Origin: a virus
Direction: 5' to 3' (one strand)
DNA: 64,000 bases
Virus genome (UHGV): UHGV-2031204
This document shows positions 46,025-60,816 of the stretch, piece after piece (within the stretch, counting starts at the first letter, position 1; the number at the start of each line of letters is the position of its first letter). The position numbers and the translations under genes are program-made. Below the pieces are notes generated by a model that worked only from the letters and a program-made list of their open reading frames with translations, searched no databases and had not been told where the DNA came from.

Positions 46025-46028
46025 CATT

Positions 46029-46066
46029 AACCTCTACCTTCGGGTAGAGGTTACTTCTTTTTATTT
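46029..46066 (+). terminator. intrinsic terminator
   Basis: aacctctaccttcgggtagaggtt followed by a T-rich tract. Confidence 0.75.
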
Positions 46067-46113
46067 TTACAATTTTTAAACATACTGTGAGACTTAAAAG
46101 AAGGAGTGCTATT

Positions 46114-46767
46114 GTGGAACCATTACGCTTAATGACCAGAACGTTACTGATACCTATTCAGGACCTGAAGGTTGGACCGTTGGTCACCTCCAATGGGGAA
46201 ATTGTTGATTTCGTTAAAGAGGAAAAAATTGTTACGGCGGCTTTTCAAGAGACGCTCCATCGCCATTATCGTGCAGTACCTTTATCTGGCAGTCTAGATT
46301 GTCCGGGTGTAGAGGGGAGTACGTCTGCGTTAATAGCGGAGCATTTAGAAAAGAAAGGGTTTGGGGTCGGGAAAGGACAGGTTTTTGTAGACACTGCCAC
46401 ACTGAACAAATACCAAAACGACCTAATGTTACAGATAAGGAGATTACTTGCCCGTTATGGTCTTTTCTCGATTAATTGTAAGTTTGACGACGTTCGGATG
46501 TTAGACCACGGTTTTACTACCAGCCTTAAAATCTGTCGTGGTAAAAGATTCATACAGTTTACCTGGTGGGTGCCATCCCTACGAGGTGAGAGAAAAACGG
46601 TGGAAGGGCTGTATGGTTGGGCTTTATGGGCCGAAGTTCCAGTAACGAAACTCGATGCGATTATTCCACAGCATCGAAACGTTCCACTTAGCAGTTTATT
46701 TACTTCTGGTGGGAACACCACGTGGGATGAATTTGTTAAAAACGTTTTATCGATAGGGGAACAATAA
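46114..46767 (+). CDS. hypothetical protein
   Basis: GTG at 46114 about 8 nt after aaggag; the track start at 46087 would put the RBS inside the ORF. Confidence 0.7.
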   Translation: MEPLRLMTRTLLIPIQDLKVGPLVTSNGEIVDFVKEEKIVTAAFQETLHRHYRAVPLSGSLDCPGVEGSTSALIAEHLEKKGFGVGKGQVFVDTATLNKYQNDLMLQIRRLLARYGLFSINCKFDDVRMLDHGFTTSLKICRGKRFIQFTWWVPSLRGERKTVEGLYGWALWAEVPVTKLDAIIPQHRNVPLSSLFTSGGNTTWDEFVKNVLSIGEQ

Positions 46768-47243
46768 TGCAGCAGTTAGATATTACCGAAGACAAAATTT
46801 CCGCTAAATTTCCTGAATTACGTGAATACGTCAAAGACTTAAATTCGATTCGGGAAACGCCAGTTAGAATCACGTTGGCTGTTGAAGACGATATTACACA
46901 TGGGGTTGCAATCTGGGAGCCGGGGAATCTTATCTATCTGGTAGTGGCCGAAGGTTCTCGTCGTAGCGGTGTAGGTTCCTTTTTACTGAAATACGTTCAA
47001 CTTAATTCAGATCGTCAAATGGTGATGTGTCGTGTCCATCCCTCAAACATAGACGGGCTGTGTTTCTTTTCCAAAAAAGGCTTCCAAATAGACCGATGGT
47101 TTATTGCCAGTGACTCCCGTCGGTATTTTCGTATGACGAACAGTAACGTTGATTCGTCATACGCCCCGCCGGAAGAAGGATATTTGGTGGATTTTATTGA
47201 AAACACCCCCATCTTTCTCTCTGTTGCGGATAAGATTTATTAG
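46767..47243 (+). CDS. putative GNAT-family acetyltransferase
   Basis: IYLVVAEGSRRSGVGSFLLKYVQ resembles GNAT motif A (R-x-x-G-x-G), at the usual position in a ~160-aa protein. Confidence 0.5.
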   Translation: MQQLDITEDKISAKFPELREYVKDLNSIRETPVRITLAVEDDITHGVAIWEPGNLIYLVVAEGSRRSGVGSFLLKYVQLNSDRQMVMCRVHPSNIDGLCFFSKKGFQIDRWFIASDSRRYFRMTNSNVDSSYAPPEEGYLVDFIENTPIFLSVADKIY

Positions 47244-47262
47244 AAACAGTTGAGAGCCCAAA

Positions 47263-47742
47263 ATGATTCGTGTCGAATATGAGACGCGGTGCTTGGAAGG
47301 CAATAAAGCAAAAGTGTTACGTTGCGTTGAAGTTATCCCCGCACACGAGGTTGATTTACGTACAGGTCGTGTTCGGGGAGTTCCTGTAACGATACTACAA
47401 CATAATCCTTGTTCGCAATTTAAAGGGAAGGCAACTCCAGCAGTACGTTCTCGTCGTCGAGAGGACTTTTCTGATCTCCGCAAATCTTTTACACGGCACT
47501 ACCGACGCAGTAAATGGAAAGTGTTGGTATTAATTTTAGTGGATGATTTTATTAAAGACTTGGTTTGGGAGGAGGTGCTAAAAGAGCGCGGTTTTACACC
47601 CAAACCTTTCTCGTATCACTGGGAACGTTTCAAAAAGAAATATCGTGAAGCGCTATGGTTTTCGCCGAACACACGGAATATGATTCCGCGCTTAGAGTCG
47701 ATGCCATGGCTACGCGATCATCTTGATGAGGTAGACCGATGA
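47263..47742 (+). CDS. hypothetical protein
   Basis: 159-aa ORF with gagag RBS. Confidence 0.75.
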   Translation: MIRVEYETRCLEGNKAKVLRCVEVIPAHEVDLRTGRVRGVPVTILQHNPCSQFKGKATPAVRSRRREDFSDLRKSFTRHYRRSKWKVLVLILVDDFIKDLVWEEVLKERGFTPKPFSYHWERFKKKYREALWFSPNTRNMIPRLESMPWLRDHLDEVDR

Positions 47743-48131
47743 AACGAACTGTCATTACCCTATTTCTAACGTTACTTTCATTTTCCGCGTTCGCGGAATT
47801 TAAACCGCACGATATTAGTCGTTTTGAACCTACAGTGCCGGGCGATAAACCCGTCGTTTTTAAATCTACCGACCAGCCAGTTGTTGCAGTTCAAAACGAT
47901 GAGTTCGCCACGGTAAATTACGGTAAAACCGAATTGTGCCCGGCAGGTGGCTACTATTTGGTAAACATCAAACGGCGTACATATCAGTTTGTTGATCCGG
48001 GTAGTTGTTCTGCCAGTGTAAAGGTAACGTTAGAAACTGTACCCTACGCAAATAAAAGTATTAATATCCAACGTTTAACTTTCTATGTTGGTGATGAGAT
48101 CACCGCACGGTACCCATTATACGGGTATTAG
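47739..48131 (+). CDS. putative secreted protein with N-terminal signal peptide
   Basis: N-terminus MKRTVITLFLTLLSFSAFA-EF has a positive n-region, hydrophobic core and AFA-like cleavage site; two Cys in the mature part. Confidence 0.7.
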   Translation: MKRTVITLFLTLLSFSAFAEFKPHDISRFEPTVPGDKPVVFKSTDQPVVAVQNDEFATVNYGKTELCPAGGYYLVNIKRRTYQFVDPGSCSASVKVTLETVPYANKSINIQRLTFYVGDEITARYPLYGY

Positions 48132-48154
48132 TGATTAACCCCCGCGGAGTTTGT

Positions 48155-48793
48155 ATGTCTTTTGTAATTGATTTTGAAGTTGGTCATAGACAGAACTTAC
48201 TCAACCTCGTTAGTTACTGTAATAGCGGCAGTGTACGTAAAAAGCTTTCGGCTGAGAAAGTGGATGTTTCTTTAATAGGCGCACCCACACCGGAAGGTCG
48301 GTATCGGGTAAAGTTAACTAATCGCAACGATATTAACGACGCGGTGATGATATCTTACACGAAACTTCAATTGAATGACTTTCTTGATATTCCCGGTAAG
48401 TATCTGGATTGGTTCGATTTCGAAAACGGCCAACCTAAAAATTACGATAAATGGGCAGAGTCCGCGAAAGTGTCGGTGGAGAAGATGTGTCAAGACCGTG
48501 GTATGGTTTTGTCGCGTGCATGGGACACGGGCTCGCAGTGTCATGTTGAGTATGATGAGGATCTCGAGCGCTATGTGGTAATTTACGAATGTGATTCGTT
48601 TATTTATAGCGCACGAAATCGATTTATTCTACCGCTTCATATCGGGCAAATTATTACGAATAAAACCCTTGACGGACTTAATTACAACAACGAACTGAAT
48701 AAACGTCCTTTAGGGGGCTTAGATGGTGAGTTGGACGTCTGGATGGGCAAAGCGTTACTCGAGACCGTCGTTTTAAGTGGTTTAGAAGCGTGA
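48155..48793 (+). CDS. hypothetical protein
   Basis: ATG at 48155 preceded by gcggag; the track start at 48131 is a GTG overlapping the upstream stop. Confidence 0.75.
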   Translation: MSFVIDFEVGHRQNLLNLVSYCNSGSVRKKLSAEKVDVSLIGAPTPEGRYRVKLTNRNDINDAVMISYTKLQLNDFLDIPGKYLDWFDFENGQPKNYDKWAESAKVSVEKMCQDRGMVLSRAWDTGSQCHVEYDEDLERYVVIYECDSFIYSARNRFILPLHIGQIITNKTLDGLNYNNELNKRPLGGLDGELDVWMGKALLETVVLSGLEA

Positions 48794-48807
48794 TAACATC
48801 ACCGATA

Positions 48808-48850
48808 GGAGAGAACCCTGAAAAGGTTCTCTCCTGCTTTCTTTTTTTTT
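48808..48850 (+). terminator. intrinsic terminator
   Basis: ggagagaaccctgaaaaggttctctcc followed by a long T-run. Confidence 0.8.
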
Positions 48851-48880
48851 CACTTCACAACTTCAGTATGGAGGTGACAA

Positions 48881-49429
48881 ATGTATAAAATTGCTATTAT
48901 TGGTTCTCGAGAAACGCCCGAAGACACGATGCAAGAAATGTTGGATGTGTTGCAACGTGGGTTCAAAATTCTTCGTAATAAACAGCACAGTATCGAAACC
49001 CGATCAGGGGGTTGTTATAAAGGACCAGACCAACTACAGTTTATGTTAGCACGTACTGAACCAGGTCTACATATTTGCTATTTGCCCGACGATCGTAAGT
49101 TGTGGTTACGTAAGTTACATCCGAATGTGGATTTTCGCGTTATTCCACAAGACGTCCGTTATCGTGGGATTGTGGCATCGCTTCACCCTAATCCTGATAA
49201 GCTATCGGAAATAGCTTGGGCGTTGCATGGACGAAACTTAAATATTGTATCCGGTGATTCTTTGGACGATCATGTAGACGCCGTCTATTATTACGCCGAG
49301 CATGATAAAAAGGGAAATCCAAAAGGGGGTACGGCGATGGGTGTCCGCTACGCACAGTCACTGAACATCCCTTGCTATTATCATGTTACGGATGCATCTA
49401 AGTGGTTAGAAGACCTACGCTTATTATGA
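48881..49429 (+). CDS. DprA/Smf-like (SLOG-type) Rossmann-fold protein
   Basis: IAIIGSRETPED followed by RSGGCYKGPDQL resembles the GSR ... SGG-x-x-G-x-D pattern of DprA/LOG-like nucleotide-binding domains; weak, motif-level only. Confidence 0.35.
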   Translation: MYKIAIIGSRETPEDTMQEMLDVLQRGFKILRNKQHSIETRSGGCYKGPDQLQFMLARTEPGLHICYLPDDRKLWLRKLHPNVDFRVIPQDVRYRGIVASLHPNPDKLSEIAWALHGRNLNIVSGDSLDDHVDAVYYYAEHDKKGNPKGGTAMGVRYAQSLNIPCYYHVTDASKWLEDLRLL

Positions 49430-49479
49430 AGTTAGTCAGGGCGGGCTTCTCCCCGCTTTAGCTTAAAATGGGGTAAAGG

Positions 49480-50613
49480 ATGTCAACATTAGATTCCGAT
49501 TTAGAAGTCCTTTGCGATGACTACGATCGATTGGTCGCGTTAGAATCGCTTAATGTTAAAGACAACTATCCGGCGGTTGTCGCTATCCGAAAACGGTGGG
49601 CTTTAGATGATGTCCACGTTGCGTTGGAGTCCGCAGCGATGATGGAACGCGCGCAATTTGTTGCGGACACCGAGCCTTACGCAGGGGTAGGTAAAGCGGT
49701 CGCACGCGCGACCGGCAGAGCGGTTAAGGGAGTTGGACGCGTTGCTGGAAAAGCAGCAGTGGCAGGAGCCAAAGCGTCTGGAAAATTCGCAGGTAAACAT
49801 TCTAAGCAACTGGCCTTACGTTTTATCGACTTCGCGGAAGCCGCTGGTAAAGAAGTTATTAATGAACTGAAAGAAGCGACGTCCAAAGCATCGTCGTTAG
49901 AGCGGAAGCTACAGAAGTTAGAAGCACGTTTAAGTTTACTCGGTATCAAGGACACCTTAAAACCGGTTGACTGTGACACAGGAAGTTGGACAACCAAAGT
50001 TTGTTTAGAAGACAAGCCTAACGTAAAAGCATGTATTGAGTTCAGTAAGAACCTGAGCGCAATGGATGCGATGGTCAACGAGTATACTGTTAAAACACGT
50101 ACGTTAATCGGTAAGAGCAAGAAAGTTACCGAGAGCGGTTTGGAGAAAGTGGGCCGGTCAACGAACTGGGCGATTAAACGAAGCGCAGGACTGTTCGGTA
50201 TTATCGATCCGTTTAAAACGGTGAAAGCATATCCGTGGCCAGGTAACGTGGTGGTCGTTGAACACGACAGCGGTAAGATTGAGTGGGCGATTGCCCGCGA
50301 TGGTGATTTTGGCCACACAATTAAATCTCTGAACTTGCACGAAATCGGTTCAGCATTCGACGCCGTTAGAAACATTATCCGAGCGTTACGTCAGCGTGGT
50401 GCGAAACGACGTAGTGTTGGGTATACAGGAATTTATGATGAAATTCAACGTATGCGTAAGGAACTTAAGTCGCTTGAAGGGCGGGAGTTACGCGACGCTA
50501 CCGTACGTTATAAAAACGCACTGCGTTTAGAAGATGCGTTTACTACCTCGTTAGTGCGCGTTGCGGAAGGGTTACTGGAATGGTGCAGGTTGTCGCTGAT
50601 TGAGGTTAAATAA
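49480..50613 (+). CDS. hypothetical protein with Gly/Ala/Lys-rich repeat region
   Basis: 377-aa ORF; region GKAVARATGRAVKGVGRVAGKAAVAGAKASGKFAGK. Confidence 0.8.
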   Translation: MSTLDSDLEVLCDDYDRLVALESLNVKDNYPAVVAIRKRWALDDVHVALESAAMMERAQFVADTEPYAGVGKAVARATGRAVKGVGRVAGKAAVAGAKASGKFAGKHSKQLALRFIDFAEAAGKEVINELKEATSKASSLERKLQKLEARLSLLGIKDTLKPVDCDTGSWTTKVCLEDKPNVKACIEFSKNLSAMDAMVNEYTVKTRTLIGKSKKVTESGLEKVGRSTNWAIKRSAGLFGIIDPFKTVKAYPWPGNVVVVEHDSGKIEWAIARDGDFGHTIKSLNLHEIGSAFDAVRNIIRALRQRGAKRRSVGYTGIYDEIQRMRKELKSLEGRELRDATVRYKNALRLEDAFTTSLVRVAEGLLEWCRLSLIEVK

Positions 50614-51080
50614 TGCGTATTACTATTATTCTCAAACCCGACAGTAAATACGGAAAGTTATACGGCGACCAGGTACTCAAACTGCACAACATGCTGTTCG
50701 CAGAAGAGAAAGTGCGTATTAGTCAGTTAACCGGTCGCGACACGTTCAACCCAATTGAACACTTAGAAGAGATTTGGCCCCAAGATTATCTCTGTGCGTG
50801 TGCCGTGGATGTCAACGAACAACTTCTGGGTTTCATGACGTTCTCAATAGGTTCTTGCTCGAAGGACACATTTGTTTATATTGGGAACTACTATGTGATT
50901 CCCGAAGCGCGTTCTCAGGGGGTAGGGCGTGCGCTTATGGACAAAGTCCGTGAATACGGAAAGTCCAAAGGTTGCGGTTGGATGAGTTTGGATGTGCTGG
51001 ACAACAACGTTAAAGCTATCTCCTTGTATGAGAAAATGGGATTCCGTACTGAATGCAGGGAAATGATAAAGGAAATCTAA
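50613..51080 (+). CDS. GNAT-family N-acetyltransferase
   Basis: YVIPEARSQGVGRALMDKVREYGKSKGCGWMSLDVLDNNVKAISLYEKMGF matches GNAT motifs A and B (Q/R-x-x-G-x-G/A ... Y-x-K-x-GF). Confidence 0.7.
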   Translation: MRITIILKPDSKYGKLYGDQVLKLHNMLFAEEKVRISQLTGRDTFNPIEHLEEIWPQDYLCACAVDVNEQLLGFMTFSIGSCSKDTFVYIGNYYVIPEARSQGVGRALMDKVREYGKSKGCGWMSLDVLDNNVKAISLYEKMGFRTECREMIKEI

Positions 51081-51081
51081 A

Positions 51082-51714
51082 ATGGCTGCAAGATTAGTAC
51101 CGTTTCATGACGGGTCTAGATATACTTTTGGTGTAGAGCGTTACGCTGTGGGTTTTCGTCCTGGTTGGAGAGTGGTACGAATCGATAAAGCGTGTTGGTG
51201 TTTACCGACCGGCATTTTTGATTACTTTACACCTGAAGCTTTAACGCGGTTTGTTTCTCTGGGTTCACCCACTCAACGTGCGGCGTGGGAAAAGAATATC
51301 CGTTGCCGTTATTTGGGTAAAACACGAAACGCGACAGTCCGTGGCGTTTATCACGTAAGAAGTCGTTGGTTACACGTCGAGCCGACACACCCACGATGTG
51401 CAGTCACACCCTTTAATGGGGAGTATAAAGGTCAGGTATACACAGGATTGCATTTTGCTTTTCCAGACAACCCCGATCTTAATTACTTTTTAGCCACCCA
51501 GAAAAACGTTACGTTGTCTACGTTCTATAAATACCTTTTGTTCTATCCTGCGTATGTCGTTGCAGAATTTGAACACAAAGCATTTCCTCTGCCATACGGT
51601 AGAGACAGGAGATTAGCAGGATGTTCTATCGAGAACTTCAGCAATACACCGACGCTCTCCGAAAAGCGACCATCGATGCAGACAACAACCTCAGAGATGT
51701 CGTTAGCACTATAG
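51082..51714 (+). CDS. hypothetical protein
   Basis: 210-aa ORF with aaggaaatc RBS; its last ~94 nt overlap the next gene in another frame, so the 3' end is uncertain. Confidence 0.55.
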   Translation: MAARLVPFHDGSRYTFGVERYAVGFRPGWRVVRIDKACWCLPTGIFDYFTPEALTRFVSLGSPTQRAAWEKNIRCRYLGKTRNATVRGVYHVRSRWLHVEPTHPRCAVTPFNGEYKGQVYTGLHFAFPDNPDLNYFLATQKNVTLSTFYKYLLFYPAYVVAEFEHKAFPLPYGRDRRLAGCSIENFSNTPTLSEKRPSMQTTTSEMSLAL

Positions 51715-51992
51715 AACAGTGTTCGGATGTATTGTATGCGGAAACGATTGAATCACCAACTCACGACGGTGTGAAATCGCTCCAGCTACACGTTTGTAGT
51801 AAACACGGGAGTCTGTCGTTAAACTTCCGTGTAGGTTTAGATTATTACATGGTTCGTAAGAGCTATTTAAGTTGCGACGGCGACCTCTATCCGGTTGTCT
51901 GGAACAACGACTATTCTAAGTTTGTTTATCCGCTTGAAGAACACCGACGCACGGTTTACGAATTTGTGAAAGCTGTTCTTGAGGGGTTCTAA
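51621..51992 (+). CDS. hypothetical protein
   Basis: 123-aa ORF; ATG at 51621 preceded by acaggagattagcagg. Confidence 0.7.
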   Translation: MFYRELQQYTDALRKATIDADNNLRDVVSTIEQCSDVLYAETIESPTHDGVKSLQLHVCSKHGSLSLNFRVGLDYYMVRKSYLSCDGDLYPVVWNNDYSKFVYPLEEHRRTVYEFVKAVLEGF

Positions 51993-52006
51993 GAGAGGGC
52001 CTTGTA

Positions 52007-52612
52007 ATGTCAGAGATGATTCTCGATTCATTACTATTGATTACAGTATCGTATATCAACAAAACGGGCAAGTTGCCTAAGCGTGGCGTTACTATCGAAC
52101 GCGACGGGTTTAAACATCGCTATCCCTTAACGAAAATTTTGGATTTAGCTGCACGTTTAGCCAAGATGCGTCGTCCGAATAGCGAAGCGGCACCGAAATA
52201 CGTTTTACTAGTTTTACAACGCGCGATTTCTGAGGTGCGTCGTAAACGCCGTCGTGCCGCGTTTCGATTTTATCCCAATTCGACGCAACAAGTGGTGGGG
52301 GAATACAACGATATGGTTGTCGATCTTCGTGCAGGTCGGAGTAATGTAACCGGGCTGGCGTATAACCGCCTTAAACGCATTCTGGACGACAGTGATGCTT
52401 TAACCACGCCACAGGAGGGACAAGCGGCTCTAACGCTTCTACGTGGCGCTGAGCTCGTTATTGTGGACACTGCCGTGCAGGCAGCAAGAATGCAACACTA
52501 TCTTGCTAAACAAGGGTTAGTCTTGCTGTGCGTAACGTCTGCACAGGCTGCTAATCTCACCGCACCACAAACGTCAGAAGTGTGGAGTGATCCGATTGTT
52601 GATCACCAATAA
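52007..52612 (+). CDS. hypothetical protein
   Basis: 201-aa ORF; terminator follows. Confidence 0.8.
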   Translation: MSEMILDSLLLITVSYINKTGKLPKRGVTIERDGFKHRYPLTKILDLAARLAKMRRPNSEAAPKYVLLVLQRAISEVRRKRRRAAFRFYPNSTQQVVGEYNDMVVDLRAGRSNVTGLAYNRLKRILDDSDALTTPQEGQAALTLLRGAELVIVDTAVQAARMQHYLAKQGLVLLCVTSAQAANLTAPQTSEVWSDPIVDHQ

Positions 52613-52619
52613 AACCTTA

Positions 52620-52654
52620 CCCCTACTTAACGGTAGGGGCGGGTTTCTTTTTTT
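52620..52654 (+). terminator. intrinsic terminator
   Basis: cccctacttaacggtagggg followed by a T-run. Confidence 0.75.
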
Positions 52655-52742
52655 ACCCTAAATTTTATTACAGATTGATATTATCAATGTGACAACCGTA
52701 GTGAGTCGGTAACTCACCAATTTAAAAAAAGAGAGATAAATT

Positions 52743-53357
52743 ATGGAAATTAAGCGCTTTGAACTCCCTAACAACTACACTTTAGTTGAAGTTGCTGAAA
52801 ATGAAATTGGCGAAAATAGAAAGAATGCGGGCTTTGTCTCGAAAAATTCGCTTTTGATTTATGAAGGTGAGAAATTAAAGTATACCGTCGGTCATCTCTT
52901 CACTGAAAATGGAAAACTCTGGGAATCGCAGTACGAAAGACTGTTGTCGAAATTCCGTTCCCAATTATTGCTGAGATACCTTCGCGATGAGGAAGACTAT
53001 AAACTCTTTGTAACAAAAGAACAACTATTGGCTGATAAATATCCCGCTTATACTGCATGTTTAGCAGCTCTTAAATTGGTCGGCGGTTATGAGGAGTTCG
53101 TGGCGGGCAGTAGCAATTTTGCTATCTCACGACACAGAGATCGCGTCATCATCAAAGATTTTGAGGTGACCCATATACGTACTGTCACGCTCAGCCTCAA
53201 GCATCCTGAAAAGGTGAGTATCGATGACCGGTACGTCATTGCAAACAAGGCCATTTCTTTTACAGCGAAATACCATACCGTCGGTTACCCTACGAGTAAG
53301 GAAGTGTACGAAGAACGTAACCTTGAGAGCTTAATTTCCACATATTTTGAATTGTAA
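52743..53357 (+). CDS. hypothetical protein
   Basis: 204-aa ORF with aagagagat RBS. Confidence 0.8.
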   Translation: MEIKRFELPNNYTLVEVAENEIGENRKNAGFVSKNSLLIYEGEKLKYTVGHLFTENGKLWESQYERLLSKFRSQLLLRYLRDEEDYKLFVTKEQLLADKYPAYTACLAALKLVGGYEEFVAGSSNFAISRHRDRVIIKDFEVTHIRTVTLSLKHPEKVSIDDRYVIANKAISFTAKYHTVGYPTSKEVYEERNLESLISTYFEL

Positions 53358-53365
53358 GTAAAACT

Positions 53366-53395
53366 AAGGGGTGTTTTTTACACCCCTTTTATCTA
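53366..53395 (+). terminator. intrinsic terminator (short T-tract)
   Basis: aaggggtgttttttacacccctt followed by ttttatct. Confidence 0.55.
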
Positions 53396-53419
53396 AAAGC
53401 GCGTAAAGGTAAAACAATA

Positions 53420-54043
53420 ATGCTTAAGACCGTGTCTATTGATGGTCCTGATTTTTCTGGGAAATCAACGTTGTGTAAAATGGTAAAAGCGATGTTGGAG
53501 TCCGCAGGATTAAAAGTGTGTATTCGGAACCATCCGACGTCTGAAACCGAGGCGGGTATTCGTGCACGTAGCTTGGTTGTACAGTCTGCTTCGAAAACAA
53601 AAATTGCTGAAGCAATGTGTGATGACTTCCTTCACACGTTAGACCATGTTGTTGACGAGTACGATGTTGTTATTTTCGATCGCTTCTGCCCTTCAACGAT
53701 TGTTTATCAGGGGACAGATGGCAAGGACGTGGTTTTCCAACGTAAGCTAACTCGTCATTTCCACGCACCCGACCTTTATGTTTGGACAGATGTTGATTAC
53801 CCAACAGCGTTAGCGCGATTTAAGAAACGTGTAGAAGAACAAGGTAAGAATTGGGACGATGAGGTACTTACGGTTAAGTACCTAAAGGACAACCAATCTT
53901 GGGATGGCTTACGCGACCATTATCGTTTCGCGCATCACATCTTAACAGAAGGTGGTTGTCTTCACGCATTATTACCAGTAACGCAGAATGACGATTACCG
54001 TTTGAAAGCCGCTGAGATTGTTACGCACATTTTAGCAAACTAA
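53420..54043 (+). CDS. thymidylate kinase-like P-loop nucleotide kinase
   Basis: N-terminal P-loop SIDGPDFSGKSTL resembles the Tmk G-x-x-G-x-G-K-S-T motif; DRF at the expected DRY/DRF position; length (207 aa) fits. Substrate specificity not determinable by eye. Confidence 0.55.
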   Translation: MLKTVSIDGPDFSGKSTLCKMVKAMLESAGLKVCIRNHPTSETEAGIRARSLVVQSASKTKIAEAMCDDFLHTLDHVVDEYDVVIFDRFCPSTIVYQGTDGKDVVFQRKLTRHFHAPDLYVWTDVDYPTALARFKKRVEEQGKNWDDEVLTVKYLKDNQSWDGLRDHYRFAHHILTEGGCLHALLPVTQNDDYRLKAAEIVTHILAN

Positions 54044-54050
54044 CCGCTTA

Positions 54051-54088
54051 GGTACCACCCAACGGTGGTACCTATATTTTATTTTTTC
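54051..54088 (+). terminator. intrinsic terminator
   Basis: ggtaccacccaacggtggtacc followed by a T-rich tract. Confidence 0.75.
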
Positions 54089-54089
54089 T

Positions 54090-54113
54090 CAGATATATTT
54101 TACTTAGGTGAGA
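54090..54113 (+). promoter_or_regulatory. conserved promoter-like motif, copy 3 (cagatatattttacttaggtgaga)
   Basis: Matches the 18311/26567 24-mer with 2 mismatches; directly after a terminator; followed by inverted repeat agagtta/taactct; about 50 nt before the HTH gene start. Confidence 0.5.
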
Positions 54114-54163
54114 GTTATGATTAACTCTTTACACCGACTTGTTAACCTAAAGGAGTATTTACA

Positions 54164-54523
54164 ATGGCTTACAATCACAATTCCATCGTTCTGGCAAAAC
54201 GTAAATTCGGTCTTCACTTGTCTTACGTAATTCGTCATTTGACCACAAAAGACATTACCCAGCGTGAACTTGCCCAGCTTGCGAAAGTTTCACAACCTGT
54301 TATCTCGTCTATTAAGAACGATCACTCAGAACGTTTAAGTTTACCGATTATGATGAAAGTTGCTGATGCGATTCGTCTGAAATACCAGATTAGTTTTAAT
54401 TCCGTTAAGGGTCGTTGCTCAGTAACCGTTCACGTAGAGTCCGCGTTAGACTACGTTGCAAACACGTCCATTAAACGCACCACGAAGAATGTGCGTTTTA
54501 TCACTAACACCGCAACACACTAA
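54164..54523 (+). CDS. XRE-family helix-turn-helix DNA-binding protein (putative transcriptional regulator)
   Basis: ITQRELAQLAKVSQPVISSIKNDHSE fits the Cro/C1-type HTH pattern (Q-x-x-LA-x-x-x-x-VS-x-x-x-IS-x-x-E). Confidence 0.55.
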   Translation: MAYNHNSIVLAKRKFGLHLSYVIRHLTTKDITQRELAQLAKVSQPVISSIKNDHSERLSLPIMMKVADAIRLKYQISFNSVKGRCSVTVHVESALDYVANTSIKRTTKNVRFITNTATH

Positions 54524-54544
54524 TCAACCTTAAGGAGTATTATC

Positions 54545-55216
54545 ATGCCACCGAAAATTGGTAAAACTGTAATTGAAGAAACTGTAAAGAACGAGACTAA
54601 AGCCAATGAAGTTCAACATGCTGCGAAGGTTGAACTTTTACCCTGCGTTAATGAAATACTCGGGGTGAAATTCTTAACTTTTAGCCCGCATACTGACCTG
54701 GTTTTCGATCTTTATCAAGACCAGCCTTTCAACCTATTCACACTTGTCTGTACTTATAATGGCGATGTTCTGGCAGTTGCTCCTGCTCTTAATAGAGACA
54801 AGTTACTTACAGGTACGGTTATTACTGAAATTCTTCTGCGGTTAATGCATAAGTTTGAAGGGCCTGAACTTGACAAAATCGCTGTTAAGTTAGCTGACCT
54901 ACTAGTCAATGCTGCCGTCTGGTTGAGTTTTAACCCTTCTATCTATTTCCATTTCAATACAAATATTCTTCACGCCGTAACAGACGATGGTAAAAAGTAT
55001 CGCATCTTAATTAAGGGTGGGGTGCAACAACCTTTGTTCTCTAGACAAAACTGCCATATTAAGTTTTCGCCTGACTTGGTAGAAGTTTACGGCCAGCGAG
55101 TAGCGGATGGCCACTACGAGGTCCATCTCAGATTTTTCAATTACCTGTATGAAAAATTAGGGAAAGCTGGCTTGACACCCAATCTTGCTTTCACAAGTTC
55201 TGCCCCTTTTGCGTGA
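54545..55216 (+). CDS. hypothetical protein
   Basis: 223-aa ORF with taaggag RBS. Confidence 0.8.
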   Translation: MPPKIGKTVIEETVKNETKANEVQHAAKVELLPCVNEILGVKFLTFSPHTDLVFDLYQDQPFNLFTLVCTYNGDVLAVAPALNRDKLLTGTVITEILLRLMHKFEGPELDKIAVKLADLLVNAAVWLSFNPSIYFHFNTNILHAVTDDGKKYRILIKGGVQQPLFSRQNCHIKFSPDLVEVYGQRVADGHYEVHLRFFNYLYEKLGKAGLTPNLAFTSSAPFA

Positions 55217-55228
55217 TGTTTAATAATT

Positions 55229-55260
55229 GGGGAACTTCGGTTCCCCTTTCTTTTTTTGTT
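55229..55260 (+). terminator. intrinsic terminator
   Basis: ggggaacttcggttcccc followed by a long T-run; related to the 20773 hairpin. Confidence 0.75.
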
Positions 55261-55311
55261 TTTACAGCTTTAGCGTATTGTTTTGAGACGACCTTTTAAG
55301 GAGTAATTAAC

Positions 55312-56310
55312 ATGGCTTTTAGGATGATTATAAAACATACCGCCACAGATTTAACAGTAGGTCGGTTAGCACGTAGAGATATTCGCAACCCTCAACTTCA
55401 GGCATGTTTATCGGGCCCTAACGGTGCTGTGATTCGTGAGGCGTTGTGCAATAGTGAACTGAATACGTTCTCTTTACAAAAAGGAAAAACAATTCAAGGG
55501 TTTATCATCACAAAACACATTTACGGTGACCCAACGTTACACTGCTTGTATATGCATGAAATTGTACCGGGCTGTTTGAACAAACTGAACCTACTATTGG
55601 TACTCGACTATACCGGTTTTACGTATCTTAATCGAATCGCCAGTGGTGTAGAAGAAATCGCCGAACTTAATGACTTAGGATTTAAACACACCCGCACTAC
55701 GTACCGTTTAGGTACACGCTCGTTGTTGGATATCGCTCTACCAACAAACGTGAAGAACGTCTCCGGCGATTTTTATAAAGAGTTAACCGCCGCACAACGC
55801 GAACAGCTTATGTTGCTTTTGGGTACGAGCGTCGTTGAAAACATCAACGCTGACCCTGTGGGCCGCACACGACAAATAATGCCGCAAGTCGAAACGTTGG
55901 TGGAGCTAGTACGCCACGTCAACCACCACACTTACGTTTGGATGGACGCTAACGATGTTGTGGGTGTGGTGCAAGTTAAATTGCGTAATCTTAACGAGTG
56001 TGAATTAAAAGCCATTGCGGTAAATGAAACACATCGTGGTCGTGGTATCGGACGGACTTTGTTGTATCGTGCTCTACAGATTGCTTCGACAACAGCGGCA
56101 CCATTAGAGATAGGGTGTTTCAATAACAACGCACCGTTTAGACACTTGGCCGTCGATTTATTTAAATTTCGACCTTTCGAATACGAATTTGTTTTAGTGC
56201 GCGACGAAAACGTCGTCAGTTGGGAGCGTCAGAAAAATCATGTCAAGTTGGTGTTAGACGACGAAGTGTCATCGTTACAAGGCGGATATAATGCGGAAAC
56301 CAATTATTAA
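55312..56310 (+). CDS. two-domain protein with C-terminal GNAT acetyltransferase domain
   Basis: C-terminal region LKAIAVNETHRGRGIGRTLLYRALQIAS is GNAT motif A-like; the N-terminal ~170 residues have no motif I recognise; 3' end overlaps the dam start by 20 nt. Confidence 0.5.
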   Translation: MAFRMIIKHTATDLTVGRLARRDIRNPQLQACLSGPNGAVIREALCNSELNTFSLQKGKTIQGFIITKHIYGDPTLHCLYMHEIVPGCLNKLNLLLVLDYTGFTYLNRIASGVEEIAELNDLGFKHTRTTYRLGTRSLLDIALPTNVKNVSGDFYKELTAAQREQLMLLLGTSVVENINADPVGRTRQIMPQVETLVELVRHVNHHTYVWMDANDVVGVVQVKLRNLNECELKAIAVNETHRGRGIGRTLLYRALQIASTTAAPLEIGCFNNNAPFRHLAVDLFKFRPFEYEFVLVRDENVVSWERQKNHVKLVLDDEVSSLQGGYNAETNY

Positions 56311-57106
56311 GTGGATGGGTGGGAAAACACGCGTTTTAGGGGAATTACAAAAGGTCTTACCTAAACGTACAACCTTTGTAGAACCGTTTGTGGGTGCAGG
56401 GTCTGTTTTCCTAAATACGAATTACAGCCGGTATATTTTATCGGATTCTAACCCCGATTTGATACGCTTACTTTGTGTTGCGCGTGAACAGCCTGAAGAA
56501 CTGATCGCCGCGTCGCAGCCGTTGTTCTTAGACGGTAATACCGCCGTAAAGTATATGGAACGTCGTGAGCTCTTTAATAGCGGTAAATCGATGTCAGAAG
56601 TTGAACGGGCAGCGATGTTTTTATACTTAATGCGTCACGGCTATAACGGGATGTGTCGCTATAACAGTAGTGGTGGGTTCAATGTTCCGTTTGGTCGTTA
56701 CCCGAATGGGGTTTATTACCCATTAGAAGAAATTCGGGATTGGGCTAAACGTTGCGCAGAAGTTGATTATCTGGAAATTGTTTGTGAGGACTTTCGTTCT
56801 GTATTAGCGCGGACACCTGAGGATGCTGTGATTTATGCTGATCCTCCTTATATTCCGTTATCGGATACCGCGAAACATGCGCAATACCACCGTAAAGAAT
56901 TCTCACAAACGGATCATCGAGAATTAGCCAAGTTACTACAGCAGCAGGTGGAACGTGGCAACAGCGTCGTGCTGTCAAATGCAGACACCCTGCTCACCCG
57001 AGAAATTTATTACGGTTTTGAGTGGCGCAGTATTGAGGTCGGTCGCTATATGGGTGCGTCTGGTGCCGCTCGGAAAACAGTGACTGAACTACTGGGAGTG
57101 CTCTAA
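56291..57106 (+). CDS. dam: DNA adenine (N6) methyltransferase, Dam family
   Basis: KWMGGK, EPFVGAGSVFLNT, LYLMRHGYNGMCRYN..GGFNVPFGRY and the catalytic DPPY are all present and collinear with E. coli Dam (comparison from memory). Confidence 0.9.
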   Translation: MRKPIIKWMGGKTRVLGELQKVLPKRTTFVEPFVGAGSVFLNTNYSRYILSDSNPDLIRLLCVAREQPEELIAASQPLFLDGNTAVKYMERRELFNSGKSMSEVERAAMFLYLMRHGYNGMCRYNSSGGFNVPFGRYPNGVYYPLEEIRDWAKRCAEVDYLEIVCEDFRSVLARTPEDAVIYADPPYIPLSDTAKHAQYHRKEFSQTDHRELAKLLQQQVERGNSVVLSNADTLLTREIYYGFEWRSIEVGRYMGASGAARKTVTELLGVL

Positions 57107-57879
57107 TGCGCATAGTGGATATCCACGATTATCGTAATGACCATTTAGCAATTGGTGTGGACGGGAAAATGGTTTCACTAACCCGTGTACGGAAAGGGTT
57201 ATTGGAAAAGGACGTCATACGCGAGTCTGAAGACCCGACCTTTATCATTCTTTCGAACACGAATCAGCTACAAGGAATCTTCTCCGGTCGTGTCGATGGT
57301 AAGTTTTTCTACATGTCGGCAATCGTTGTGTTTGCGAAGAAGAAAATTAATTTCGCACAACTCAAACGTTTGTTAAAAGTGGAGATGTTTGATGTCACAT
57401 ACCCTGCCAATGACCTAAAACGTCGTGACCAGTTAATGGTGTATTTGGGTATGCAGCCGACGTCCATCGACTATGACCTGACGTTTACTGAAGAACCCGA
57501 AGTTCGCACCGATTTACCTGATGTAGTTGATATTGAATCTCTAACGTTAGAAGAAACGTTTACGATCCCTAAGGTGGTTAATGTCAGTTTGGATACATAC
57601 TGCCTGGGATTGTTAGCTATTGGGGCTGCTGAGGGGCTGTGCTGTCGTAAAGACGGTAAAGTTGAAGGTATCTTAGTCTATTCGAAAATCAACGAAAAGA
57701 CGTTTGCAACCGAAGGTTTCTTCTATAACGACTGTACATACGGGATTGCGCTCTTGACCACATACTACCGTATTGCGTATTTAAAGGGTGCATCCGTGCG
57801 TCTTACTTTTCCATACTCAGCACCTCCAGCAATGTCTGGTGTTGAAGTAGAAGCATTAACTGGCCATTTTATCTTTTAA
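57106..57879 (+). CDS. hypothetical protein
   Basis: 257-aa ORF; start overlaps the dam stop. Confidence 0.8.
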   Translation: MRIVDIHDYRNDHLAIGVDGKMVSLTRVRKGLLEKDVIRESEDPTFIILSNTNQLQGIFSGRVDGKFFYMSAIVVFAKKKINFAQLKRLLKVEMFDVTYPANDLKRRDQLMVYLGMQPTSIDYDLTFTEEPEVRTDLPDVVDIESLTLEETFTIPKVVNVSLDTYCLGLLAIGAAEGLCCRKDGKVEGILVYSKINEKTFATEGFFYNDCTYGIALLTTYYRIAYLKGASVRLTFPYSAPPAMSGVEVEALTGHFIF

Positions 57880-57888
57880 GGACATTGA

Positions 57889-58116
57889 ATGGAAATCAAA
57901 CGTATTGTAACCAAAGACAAAAAGATTACTTATGTTGCAGGCGATAACGAATTCTCGGCGGTTATTAATGACGAGAACGTGCTGATTATCGGTTATCCAG
58001 GTAAAGTCATTACTCGTAGCCATCAGCGCGTGATTGACAAACTCATCGCCAAAGCAAAAGCACGCGATGGTGTTGGTTCAGTACAAACCCATACCGGGTT
58101 AACGTTGGCACTCTAG
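57889..58116 (+). CDS. hypothetical small protein
   Basis: 75-aa ORF with aaggacattga RBS. Confidence 0.65.
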   Translation: MEIKRIVTKDKKITYVAGDNEFSAVINDENVLIIGYPGKVITRSHQRVIDKLIAKAKARDGVGSVQTHTGLTLAL

Positions 58117-58154
58117 CCAGCAGGTAATATGACCTCTTAACTGGAGACTTAGAG

Positions 58155-58661
58155 ATGAAAGAGACTCTGGATTTTAATCAGCTGGAGCAGCACGATTTTG
58201 ATCTCGGTGTTCGCAACTTAGAAGCTGACTACGAAACACGTTGTAAAGAATTCTTTAATCGCTACGGGCAATTGATTACCGGGGCGTCTGAAGACACCGA
58301 ATTCTCGTTAGACGATTTCGAAAAGATTCTGTCTTGCTTTATCACCGACAGCTTAGCGAAACAGGCGTTGCTGGTAGAACAGAACCTGCAAATGGTGGAG
58401 CCTACGGATGCTCACGCCGTACTAAAAGAATCCATTATTCCGAATGACGAAATTATGGATGCGGTAGCAGGTATTCGCGGTACGTTCGACACAGCTGTGG
58501 AAGACTATACCGAACAGCTTCGTGAGTCTGGGTTAACGTTGTGTGCACCTGCGGGCGAACAGTTACCTTCTGAAGAAGAAACGGAAGAAGCACGCAGTCG
58601 CTTAGCGCGCTATGTGATTACTTCTATTTTAGTAGACGATCGCGAAGAAAACGTACTGTAA
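58155..58661 (+). CDS. hypothetical acidic protein
   Basis: 168-aa ORF, D/E-rich; terminator follows. Confidence 0.75.
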   Translation: MKETLDFNQLEQHDFDLGVRNLEADYETRCKEFFNRYGQLITGASEDTEFSLDDFEKILSCFITDSLAKQALLVEQNLQMVEPTDAHAVLKESIIPNDEIMDAVAGIRGTFDTAVEDYTEQLRESGLTLCAPAGEQLPSEEETEEARSRLARYVITSILVDDREENVL

Positions 58662-58665
58662 ACTT

Positions 58666-58706
58666 CCCCTCTCTCCGTTTGGAGAGAGGGAGTATTTATT
58701 TTTACG
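58666..58706 (+). terminator. intrinsic terminator
   Basis: cccctctctccgtttggagagaggg followed by a T-rich tract; identical stem-loop recurs at 59713. Confidence 0.75.
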
Positions 58707-58759
58707 CTTTCGTGTCTAATTATGCACACGTAAACAAAATTAATTGAGGAACAGCTTAA

Positions 58760-59712: not shown

Positions 59713-59752
59713 CCCCTCTCTCCGTTTGGAGAGAGGGTACTTTTATTTTTAT
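59713..59752 (+). terminator. intrinsic terminator (copy of the 58666 hairpin)
   Basis: cccctctctccgtttggagagaggg followed by a T-rich tract. Confidence 0.75.
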
Positions 59753-60771: not shown

Positions 60772-60816
60772 TCTTTTTTACAACTGCGGCTATTTTAATG
60801 ATTAGGAGAAAAGAAA

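Follow-up and report, generated by a model that had tools for sequence, protein, structure and literature searches.

A probable counterpart of the SPN3US gene 87–109 block, with a candidate head-packaged acetyltransferase, in virus genome UHGV-2031204

Gene content of the block and its relationship to SPN3US

The window analyzed here is a stretch of 64,000 nucleotides (nt) of the virus genome UHGV-2031204, and positions 46087 to 58661 of it carry a run of plus-strand genes that encode, among other proteins, three GNAT-type acetyltransferases (GNAT1, GNAT2 and GNAT3), a phiKZ-type internal head protein, a thymidylate kinase (Tmk), a helix-turn-helix (HTH) protein and a Dam-family methylase. An initial annotation had described most of this run as an early-region island for host takeover and anti-defence. 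We consider it probable that the region is the counterpart of genes 87 to 109 of the giant Salmonella phage SPN3US, which form a conserved backbone block of the SPN3US-like, nucleus-forming jumbo phages (Chimalliviridae), here organized into about six terminator-bounded units of mixed content. The cluster is a divergent member of this known and already annotated gp87–109 module and not a newly found anti-defence island. The genes of the block are listed below, with lengths of proteins in amino acids (aa). All the GNAT, Dam, Tmk, HTH, signal-peptide and DprA-like open reading frames (ORFs) that the initial annotation had named are present on the plus strand, the DprA-like one by its PHROG name only.

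46087–46767, + strand, gp87 orthologue, fast-diverging (phrog_8034, 1.4e-12; 23% identity to SPN3US)
46767–47243, + strand, GNAT1, 158 aa, gp88 orthologue (phrog_7861 'acetyltransferase', 1.7e-70)
47263–47742, + strand, gp89 orthologue (phrog_9187, 2.4e-64; 52–58% identity to SPN3US and phiEaH2)
47739–48131, + strand, predicted signal-peptide protein, gp90 orthologue (N-terminus MKRTVITLFLTLLSFSAFA/EF; phrog_5248, 3.9e-38)
48131–48793, + strand, gp91 orthologue, a tail protein in SPN3US (phrog_10571)
48881–49429, + strand, DprA-like (SLOG) protein, gp92 orthologue (phrog_768 'DprA-like', 3.9e-44)
49480–50613, + strand, phiKZ-type internal head protein, 377 aa, gp94 orthologue (PF12699, phrog_2497)
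50613–51080, + strand, GNAT2, 155 aa, orthologue of SPN3US gp95 and phiEaH2 gp020 (PF00583)
51082–51714, + strand, gp96 orthologue (phrog_9255, 1.6e-59)
51621–51992, + strand, gp97 orthologue, a head protein in SPN3US (phrog_8535, 4.2e-41)
52007–52612, + strand, gp98 orthologue (phrog_8075, 7.9e-76)
52743–53357, + strand, strain-variable cassette with a 204-aa ORFan (own hairpin at 53366–53388)
53420–54043, + strand, Tmk, gp100 orthologue (PF02223, 4.5e-19)
54164–54523, + strand, XRE-type HTH protein, gp101 orthologue (HTH_37, 2.5e-7; also HTH_26 and HTH_3; phrog_7126, 1.3e-31)
54545–55216, + strand, lineage-restricted ORFan, 223 aa, in the slot of gp102 and gp103 of SPN3US
55312–56310, + strand, GNAT3, a tandem GNAT, gp104 orthologue (Acetyltransf_1, AlphaFold2 (AF2) model, Foldseek)
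56291–57106, + strand, Dam-family N6-adenine DNA methyltransferase, gp105 orthologue (PF02086, 3e-57; overlaps both neighbouring genes)
57106–57879, + strand, tandem-GNAT-like paralogue, 257 aa, gp106/gp107 family (hhalign against the gp104 family)
57889–58116, + strand, gp108 orthologue (phrog_7896)
58155–58661, + strand, gp109 orthologue, a head protein in SPN3US (phrog_8221, 1.1e-55)

The gene order of this block is collinear with gp87 to gp109 of SPN3US (Seoulvirus; JN641803 / NC_027402) and with Erwinia phage phiEaH2, and the likeness to SPN3US extends to the strand, the gene overlaps and the presence of three GNATs, the internal head protein and the DprA-like, Tmk, HTH and Dam proteins. 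Other relatives share this order with SPN3US and phiEaH2, and the clustering of these domains is not due to chance. Immediately upstream of the block lies the portal gene, whose product is 73% identical to gp81, followed by the orthologues of gp82 and gp83. At the nucleotide level, the region has no megablast match in the phage collection, whereas protein searches group the window with SPN3US-like jumbo phages that infect Salmonella, Erwinia, Escherichia, Cronobacter and Proteus. By tblastn, the same collection has 62 records with GNAT1, 48 with GNAT3 and 63 with GNAT2, the last including a few from distant phages. The protein identities to SPN3US and phiEaH2 are as follows.

GNAT1: SPN3US 60%, phiEaH2 68%
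Internal head protein: SPN3US 59%, phiEaH2 49%
GNAT2: SPN3US 47%, phiEaH2 49%
Tmk: SPN3US 65%, phiEaH2 60%
Dam: SPN3US 67%, phiEaH2 71%
GNAT3: SPN3US 29%, gene absent from phiEaH2

The block differs from that of SPN3US in protein identity, which is 29–67% (23% for the gp87 orthologue), and in the positions of gp93, gp99, gp102/103 and gp107, which are either absent here or filled by unrelated ORFans.

The SPN3US counterparts of many of these proteins have been surveyed by mass spectrometry of virions and of tailless heads (PMC10052503, Tables S2 and S6), and what follows refers to the parts of these tables that concern the block. There, gp91 is a tail protein, with a mean of 41 peptide-spectrum matches (PSM) in virions but none in tailless heads (Table S2), and gp94, gp95, gp97 and gp109 are head proteins, while gp98, gp100, gp103 and gp104 were found in traces only and scored as non-virion, the Tmk gp100 serving as a non-virion marker. 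gp88 and gp92 gave no match in the supplement, and gp105 does not occur in the table stretches that were covered (PMC10052503). Because five of the orthologues are parts of the SPN3US virion, the block is a mosaic of structural and non-structural genes and probably not an early-gene island.

The reading of the initial annotation, in which the GNATs, like Rac or AtaT, would be toxic to the host or modify its proteins or tRNA, Dam would act against restriction and the small genes would act against host defences, therefore meets a block that is conserved and keeps its gene order from genus to genus, adjoins the portal gene, contains the five virion orthologues and is divided by at least six terminators, and we judge it rather unlikely. 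Precedent for it comes from Rac of phiKMV-like phages (PMC7552054), by its description also a small phage GNAT predicted to act on the host, and Iyer et al. predict Rac-like roles for the GNATs of jumbo phages (PMC7824862); the phages with Rac, however, are podoviruses dependent on host RNA polymerase, whereas Chimalliviridae use their own polymerases. A toxin function is further disfavoured by PADLOC, which matches only the methylase, by the PDB searches, in which the toxins AtaT, TacT, KacT and ItaT were not among the sequence matches of the GNATs at the cut-offs used, and by the genes next to the GNATs, which encode the head protein, gp87, gp96 and Dam and include nothing antitoxin-like. 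Although Dam best matches orphan-methylase models, the chimallin shell around the phage DNA lowers the need for protection by methylation. Also consistent with an island are the existence of fast-diverging and indel ORFan slots and of a T-rich motif (TTTTTAC) after the terminators that is a possible promoter, and some of the units may be transcribed early, which counts against our own view of the block. The anti-defence idea is thus partly supported, and what is left standing of it is the orphan Dam, a putative polyamine-acetylating GNAT, an activity of phage enzymes that might, in the speculation of Li et al., weaken restriction or CRISPR (PMC9992855), and the ORFan and fast-diverging slots.

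As found, the cluster matters little, and the useful part lies in corrections and links: the block holds virion genes, one of its GNATs corresponds to a packaged head protein of SPN3US that has spermidine-acetylating relatives, the large GNAT is a tandem with a degenerate paralogue across Dam, and the host-specific genes come down to a few ORFan slots.

GNAT2 and the internal head protein

A gene that the initial annotation had missed is the one at 49480–50613, whose product is, by its sequence, a phiKZ-type internal head protein, with a head location transferred from its SPN3US orthologue. It matches PF12699 over residues 50–367 with 28.2 bits (cut-off 27 bits) and phrog_2497 at 7e-74, and its N-terminal propeptide has two prohead-protease motifs of the A-x-E type, ALE-22 and ALE-50, and SPN3US gp94 and both phiEaH2 paralogues share the former. 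SPN3US gp94 is found in the head (PSM counts of 48 for virions and 34 for tailless heads), and its cleavage is suspected, with ALE-22, ARE-51 and AME-60 as candidate sites (PMC10052503). The slot that separates this gene from the DprA-like one (49430–49479) is variable: it is empty here but holds the 90-aa gp93 in SPN3US and, in phiEaH2, a 65-aa gene and a second internal-head-protein paralogue.

The start codon of GNAT2 overlaps the stop codon of the head protein gene by 1 nt (TAATG), with a GAGG 9 nt upstream, and the two genes also overlap in SPN3US (1 nt) and in phiEaH2 (29 nt). Judged from this arrangement, GNAT2 is translationally coupled to the internal head protein, together with which it would be translated. 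GNAT2 matches Acetyltransf_1 (PF00583) at 5.3e-19, with 69.1 bits against a cut-off of 20.7 bits. Its RSQGVG is an acetyl-CoA motif, and both RSxGVG and the general-acid Tyr139 are invariant in the alignment of the orthologues. The best sequence match in PDB is the human SSAT2 (2bei, 3.6e-10, over 70 residues only), and other PDB sequence relatives are nourseothricin and aminoglycoside acetyltransferases and a 'DpA polyamine acetyltransferase'. Neither GNAT2 nor its phage relatives exceed the NCBIfam thresholds of the SpeG, PaiA and SSAT families; the score of GNAT2 against the PaiA model NF053587, for example, is 26.6 bits, with a cut-off of 250.

Two lines of published evidence bear on the function of GNAT2. 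The first is that SPN3US gp95 (17.6 kDa) has mean PSM counts of 41 (virions) and 32 (tailless heads) and that its N-terminus is intact and uncleaved and lacks a protease motif (PMC10052503). When PSM per kDa are scaled to the portal or major capsid protein, a crude estimate of about 5–35 copies of gp95 per head is obtained. The second is that phiEaH2 YP_007237670 (G173_gp020) and Caitlin YP_009292176 make N-acetylspermidine in Escherichia coli lacking speG (PMC9992855, Table S4). G173_gp020 is the gene directly 3' of the head protein gene in phiEaH2, as GNAT2 is here, and the phiEaH2 and Caitlin proteins resemble GNAT2 in their position after the internal head protein, in length, in identity (49 and 46%, respectively), in RSxGVG and in Tyr139. 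In contrast, SPN3US YP_009153389 (gp95), which is about as distant from GNAT2 as phiEaH2 gp020 is, is inactive on spermidine, as no N-acetylspermidine was found with it in that assay (PMC9992855).

Based on these orthologues, GNAT2 is most likely a head-packaged acetyltransferase that is delivered together with the genome and has a polyamine-type substrate. It would be packaged uncleaved into the head in some 5–35 copies and delivered with the DNA, as is known, in the proteomic tables cited above, for the SPN3US orthologue, and its substrate would most likely be a polyamine such as spermidine, given the active orthologues of phiEaH2 and Caitlin and notwithstanding the undetected activity of that of SPN3US. 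Several points weigh against this reading. Both the virion location and the activity are transferred to GNAT2 from orthologues that are only 47–49% identical to it. Packaging and polyamine activity are known from different orthologues and never from one protein, because the packaged SPN3US orthologue shows no detectable spermidine acetylation. Furthermore, the catalytic Glu-Asp pair of SSAT is not kept, being G-N here, Y-N in SPN3US and H-N in phiEaH2, and the head protein is suggested as the carrier of GNAT2 only by the adjacency of the two genes and the similar abundance of their products.

The head-packaged acetyltransferase so read has a likeness in phage T4, which packages and ejects the internal proteins IPI-III and the ADP-ribosyltransferase Alt. 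Like the phiKZ-type internal head proteins, the protein of 49480–50613 matches PF12699 and has an A-x-E propeptide, and the enzyme that would be packaged beside it recalls Alt in T4; a difference is that the packaged GNAT, SPN3US gp95 in the tables cited above, is uncleaved and has no recognizable capsid-targeting propeptide. We propose, tentatively and as a scheme that is rather doubtful as a whole, that GNAT2 is a virion-delivered polyamine acetyltransferase that is loaded into the capsid through the coupled internal head protein, is ejected with the genome and, in the surroundings of the entering DNA, acetylates spermidine or polyamines that come from the capsid. If so, GNAT2 could alter the condensation of DNA in the early infection vesicle, could starve spermidine-dependent host nucleases and CRISPR adaptation, and would be the metabolite-directed counterpart of T4 Alt. 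A metabolite-modifying enzyme would then be added to the injected proteins of giant phages, and one of the approximately 50 head proteins of SPN3US, most of which have no assigned function, would gain a testable role. In our literature search, no publication was found that joins the head location in SPN3US to the spermidine acetyltransferase activity in phiEaH2.

GNAT1 and the family relationships of the GNATs

GNAT1 scores 22.9 bits with Acetyltransf_7, below the Pfam cut-off of 27 bits. It aligns at 3.4e-61 with PDB 7DQG, a chain that is 100% identical to SPN3US gp88 and for which no describing publication was found, and because of its 60% identity to this solved GNAT, GNAT1 is accepted as a GNAT. 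Its motif RRSGVG is intact. With 62 phage records, a number equal to that of the head protein, GNAT1 is a core gene of the SPN3US-like phages, and its product would be a soluble, non-virion core enzyme, predicted to be an acetyltransferase.

The acetyl-CoA motif R/Q-x-x-G-x-G/A is present in all three GNATs, as RRSGVG in GNAT1, RSQGVG in GNAT2 and RGRGIG in the C-terminal domain of GNAT3. None of them passes any curated NCBIfam threshold, and with the RimI model TIGR01575 (cut-off 86.4 bits) they score 18.6, 50.2 and 26.1 bits, respectively. A placement of the GNATs in housekeeping families such as RimI, which would have spoken against the reading of the initial annotation, is not seen by this measure. 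The census of GNATs in the initial annotation held for the three that it named and missed two others, namely a second fold within 55312–56310 and the paralogue at 57106–57879, so that four GNAT folds in the region are clear and as many as six may be present. The GNATs of the block are an anciently diverged set. Nor are the members of the cluster individually uncharacterized, as had been stated: the crystal structure 7DQG belongs to gp88, gp95 is a head protein in the SPN3US tables and has spermidine-assayed orthologues, and the Tmk gp100 is a non-virion marker in the same tables.

The RimI scores bear on another explanation, according to which the GNATs are protein N-acetyltransferases that act on phage or ribosomal proteins, GNAT2 for instance on head or ejection proteins, either at assembly or once ejection has taken place, and the acetylation of spermidine in E. 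coli is a side activity. RimI is indeed the top NCBIfam model for both GNAT2 and GNAT3, and one source labels the exact GNAT2 protein 'RimI-like', but every RimI score lies far under the cut-off. Likewise, GNAT3 has Legionella VipF, a tandem-GNAT effector, among its closest matches in fold, and the SPN3US orthologue of GNAT2 is packaged, according to the virion tables, but inactive on spermidine; the best solved relatives of GNAT2, however, are diamine/polyamine and aminoglycoside acetyltransferases, two orthologues acetylate spermidine in vivo, and no acetylated phage protein is reported in the portions of the SPN3US proteomics drawn on here. We regard protein acetylation as quite unlikely to be the function of these GNATs.

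The tandem GNAT, Dam and the degenerate paralogue

GNAT3 matches Acetyltransf_1 at 1.1e-11 (45.5 bits against the cut-off of 20.7) over residues 199–279 only. In its AF2 model (predicted local distance difference test (pLDDT) 82.2, predicted template-modelling score (pTM) 0.75), which was made from a 9-sequence alignment, a 4-sequence model being too poor to use (pLDDT 54.6), the strand-helix order of a GNAT occurs twice, at residues 14–133 and approximately 190–296. The top 10 PDB matches of this model by Foldseek are all tandem GNATs (2wpw/2wpx, VipF, MAB_4324 7q3a and MshD), with E-values from 1e-13 to 1e-9 over about 300 columns. By sequence alone, the N-terminal domain gave no PDB profile match, with an hhalign probability of 2.7%. 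GNAT3 shares two GNAT folds per chain with MAB_4324 (7q3a), VipF (6wqb, 7wx5), MshD (1ozp) and 2wpw, a protein of the clavulanate pathway, but its identity to them is 10–16%, the TM-scores are 0.43–0.50 and the orientation of the domains is different (root-mean-square deviation 7–9 Å). Unlike these proteins, the GNAT3 family is confined to SPN3US-like phages, and it is narrow: among 1.84 billion proteins, only about 8 representative clusters belong to it. The C-terminal copy carries HRGRGIG, while the N-terminal copy has EIVPGCLN in place of the acetyl-CoA motif. The C-terminal copy is the one regarded as catalytic in MshD and VipF, and in GNAT3, too, only this copy could bind acetyl-CoA.

GNAT3 would be co-transcribed with Dam and with the degenerate tandem-GNAT paralogue at 57106–57879. 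Dam scores 254.9 bits with TIGR00571 (cut-off 114.85 bits) and contains YADPPY and PFVGAGS, which correspond to the DPPY and FxGxG motifs. With 258.6 bits, it remains below the equivalog cut-off of E. coli Dam (441 bits), and in PADLOC it best matches orphan-methylase models; by its sequence, the protein is an orphan Dam-family methylase. Over the whole window, the observed/expected ratios of tetranucleotides are 0.16 for CTAG, 0.51 for GGCC, 0.52 for TATA, 0.63 for GATC and 0.65 for CATG, and ACGT is enriched (1.85). The under-representation of GATC is mild and carries no information on Dam, CATG being about as low.

The 257-aa protein encoded at 57106–57879 aligns by hhalign with the gp104 family at a probability of 87% (E 4e-6, 190 columns). 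In that scan all other ORFs of the region remained below 3%, and no hidden GNAT was seen among them, at a low sensitivity that gave the known GNAT1 only 51%. The protein is probably non-catalytic, since the acetyl-CoA motif is not conserved in it. In BFVD, the GNAT3 model matches uncharacterized proteins of 256–276 aa from Kwan and phiEaH2, of which the phiEaH2 one has the length of G173_gp030. It also matches uncharacterized proteins of about 214–215 aa from the Erwinia phages Kwan and Huxley (A0A1B2IE03 and A0A1B2IDM8; target-normalized TM 0.56) that mapped to no gene of the block, the Huxley gp87 orthologue being 207 aa long, and the Kwan and Huxley genomes may hold further hidden GNAT-like proteins.

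The stretch 55312–57879 could also be read as a DNA-modification module, in which a GNAT acylates a base in the manner of Mom beside the adenine methylation. The three genes overlap and share one unit, their order (tandem GNAT, Dam, paralogue) is kept in SPN3US, Parshik and pEa_SNUABM_29, and Mom-type GNATs are known in jumbo phages (PMC7824862). However, phiEaH2 retains Dam and the paralogues without the tandem GNAT, no match to the Mom family or to another DNA-modifying GNAT was found in Pfam and NCBIfam, and the fold matches of GNAT3 are acetyltransferases of small molecules and proteins, all of which makes such a module highly improbable.

Transcription units

Strong plus-strand intrinsic terminators were found at 46028, 48806, 52620, 54049, 55229 and 58667, and these six terminators cut the region into about six units. 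The units and the terminators that lie within or at the end of the block are listed below.

46087–48793, + strand, unit A: gp87, GNAT1, gp89, signal-peptide protein, gp91
48806–48836, + strand, intrinsic terminator at the end of the first unit (12-bp stem, then a T-run)
48881–52612, + strand, unit B: DprA-like protein, internal head protein, GNAT2, gp96, gp97, gp98
52620–52639, + strand, intrinsic terminator
52743–53357, + strand, unit C: 204-aa ORFan
53420–54043, + strand, unit D: Tmk
54049–54074, + strand, intrinsic terminator
54164–55216, + strand, unit E: HTH protein, 223-aa ORFan
55229–55246, + strand, intrinsic terminator
55312–58661, + strand, unit F: GNAT3, Dam, 257-aa protein, gp108, gp109
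58667–58690, + strand, intrinsic terminator at the end of the last unit

The hairpin of the last terminator (58667–58690) is identical to one that lies 1 kb further on, at 59714–59737 (CCCTCTCTCCGTTTGGAGAGAGGG). Just 3' of the intrinsic terminators, a T-run followed by TAC (TTTTTAC, often as TTTTTACA or TTATTACA) is repeated, and sites of this type are found at the following positions.

46060–46075, TTTTTAC-type motif
52649–52690, TTTTTAC-type motif
54075–54105, TTTTTAC-type motif
55255–55270, TTTTTAC-type motif
58695–58710, TTTTTAC-type motif
60774–60785, TTTTTAC-type motif

The motif is 6–7 fold commoner in intergenic than in coding sequence and may be either a part of the terminators or a promoter element for a phage polymerase. 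A scan for sigma-70 promoters returned 18 promoter-like sites in the region vs. 28 in shuffled sequence, a result that is irrelevant here because SPN3US-like phages use their own polymerases.

Other enzymes, variable slots and lineage

The Tmk possesses the P-loop GPDFSGKST and the DR motif and scores 69.3 bits with PF02223 (cut-off 27 bits), while with 56.9 bits it falls below the equivalog cut-off of TIGR00041 (83.25 bits). For 48881–49429, the DprA-like label comes from the PHROG name alone, since no Pfam (E up to 0.01), NCBIfam or PDB sequence match was found. That GNATs of jumbo phages modify host machinery and that a DprA/SLOG protein acts in recombination have already been proposed (PMC7824862).

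The variable slots of the block are 46087–46767, 52743–53357, 54545–55216, 55312–56310 and 57106–57879. They are its only island-like feature, and genes for interaction with the host would be expected there. The proteins of 46087–46767, 55312–56310 and 57106–57879 are only 23–29% identical to their counterparts, vs. 47–76% for the backbone. The cassette of the 204-aa ORFan comprises about 735 bp within 52640–53419, between the terminator after the gp98 orthologue and the ribosome-binding site of Tmk; it is present in the near-identical loci L004 and L005 and absent from L006–L009, and in SPN3US its slot holds an unrelated protein, the 252-aa gp99. Only 2 protein clusters in 5.8 billion contain this ORFan. 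The 223-aa ORFan at 54545–55216 has no homologue in SPN3US or phiEaH2, and its 5 protein clusters are all in the present lineage. Neither ORFan matched a family in searches of Pfam, PHROG, NCBIfam and PADLOC. Together with the fast-diverging 46087–46767, these two ORFan slots would form the accessory, host-specific part of the block.

The exact proteins of the window are found on contigs of 220–229 kb in isolate assemblies (many Salmonella serovars, Shigella flexneri and E. coli) and in metagenomes, and relatives at 88% nucleotide identity have been entered in databases as 'plasmids', circular, non-mobilizable and about 222 kb long, namely NZ_CP173450.1 of E. coli and NZ_CP134650.1 of Enterobacter ludwigii. 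In size, hosts and synteny, the lineage fits the proposed genus 'Bapsvirus' or 'Seoul-like persistent phages', the persistent or carrier-state jumbo phages of recent reports (PMC12768965; bioRxiv 10.1101/2024.12.31.630880), and this carrier-state lineage has already been described from bacterial assemblies.

Among the smaller genes, the stop codon of the gp87 orthologue overlaps the start codon of GNAT1 by 1 nt, and the protein of 47739–48131 begins with what reads as a typical, textbook signal peptide. The gp96 and gp97 orthologues share 94 nt (51621–51714) in different frames, an overlap that is conserved, since the SPN3US genes overlap by 55 nt at the equivalent place.

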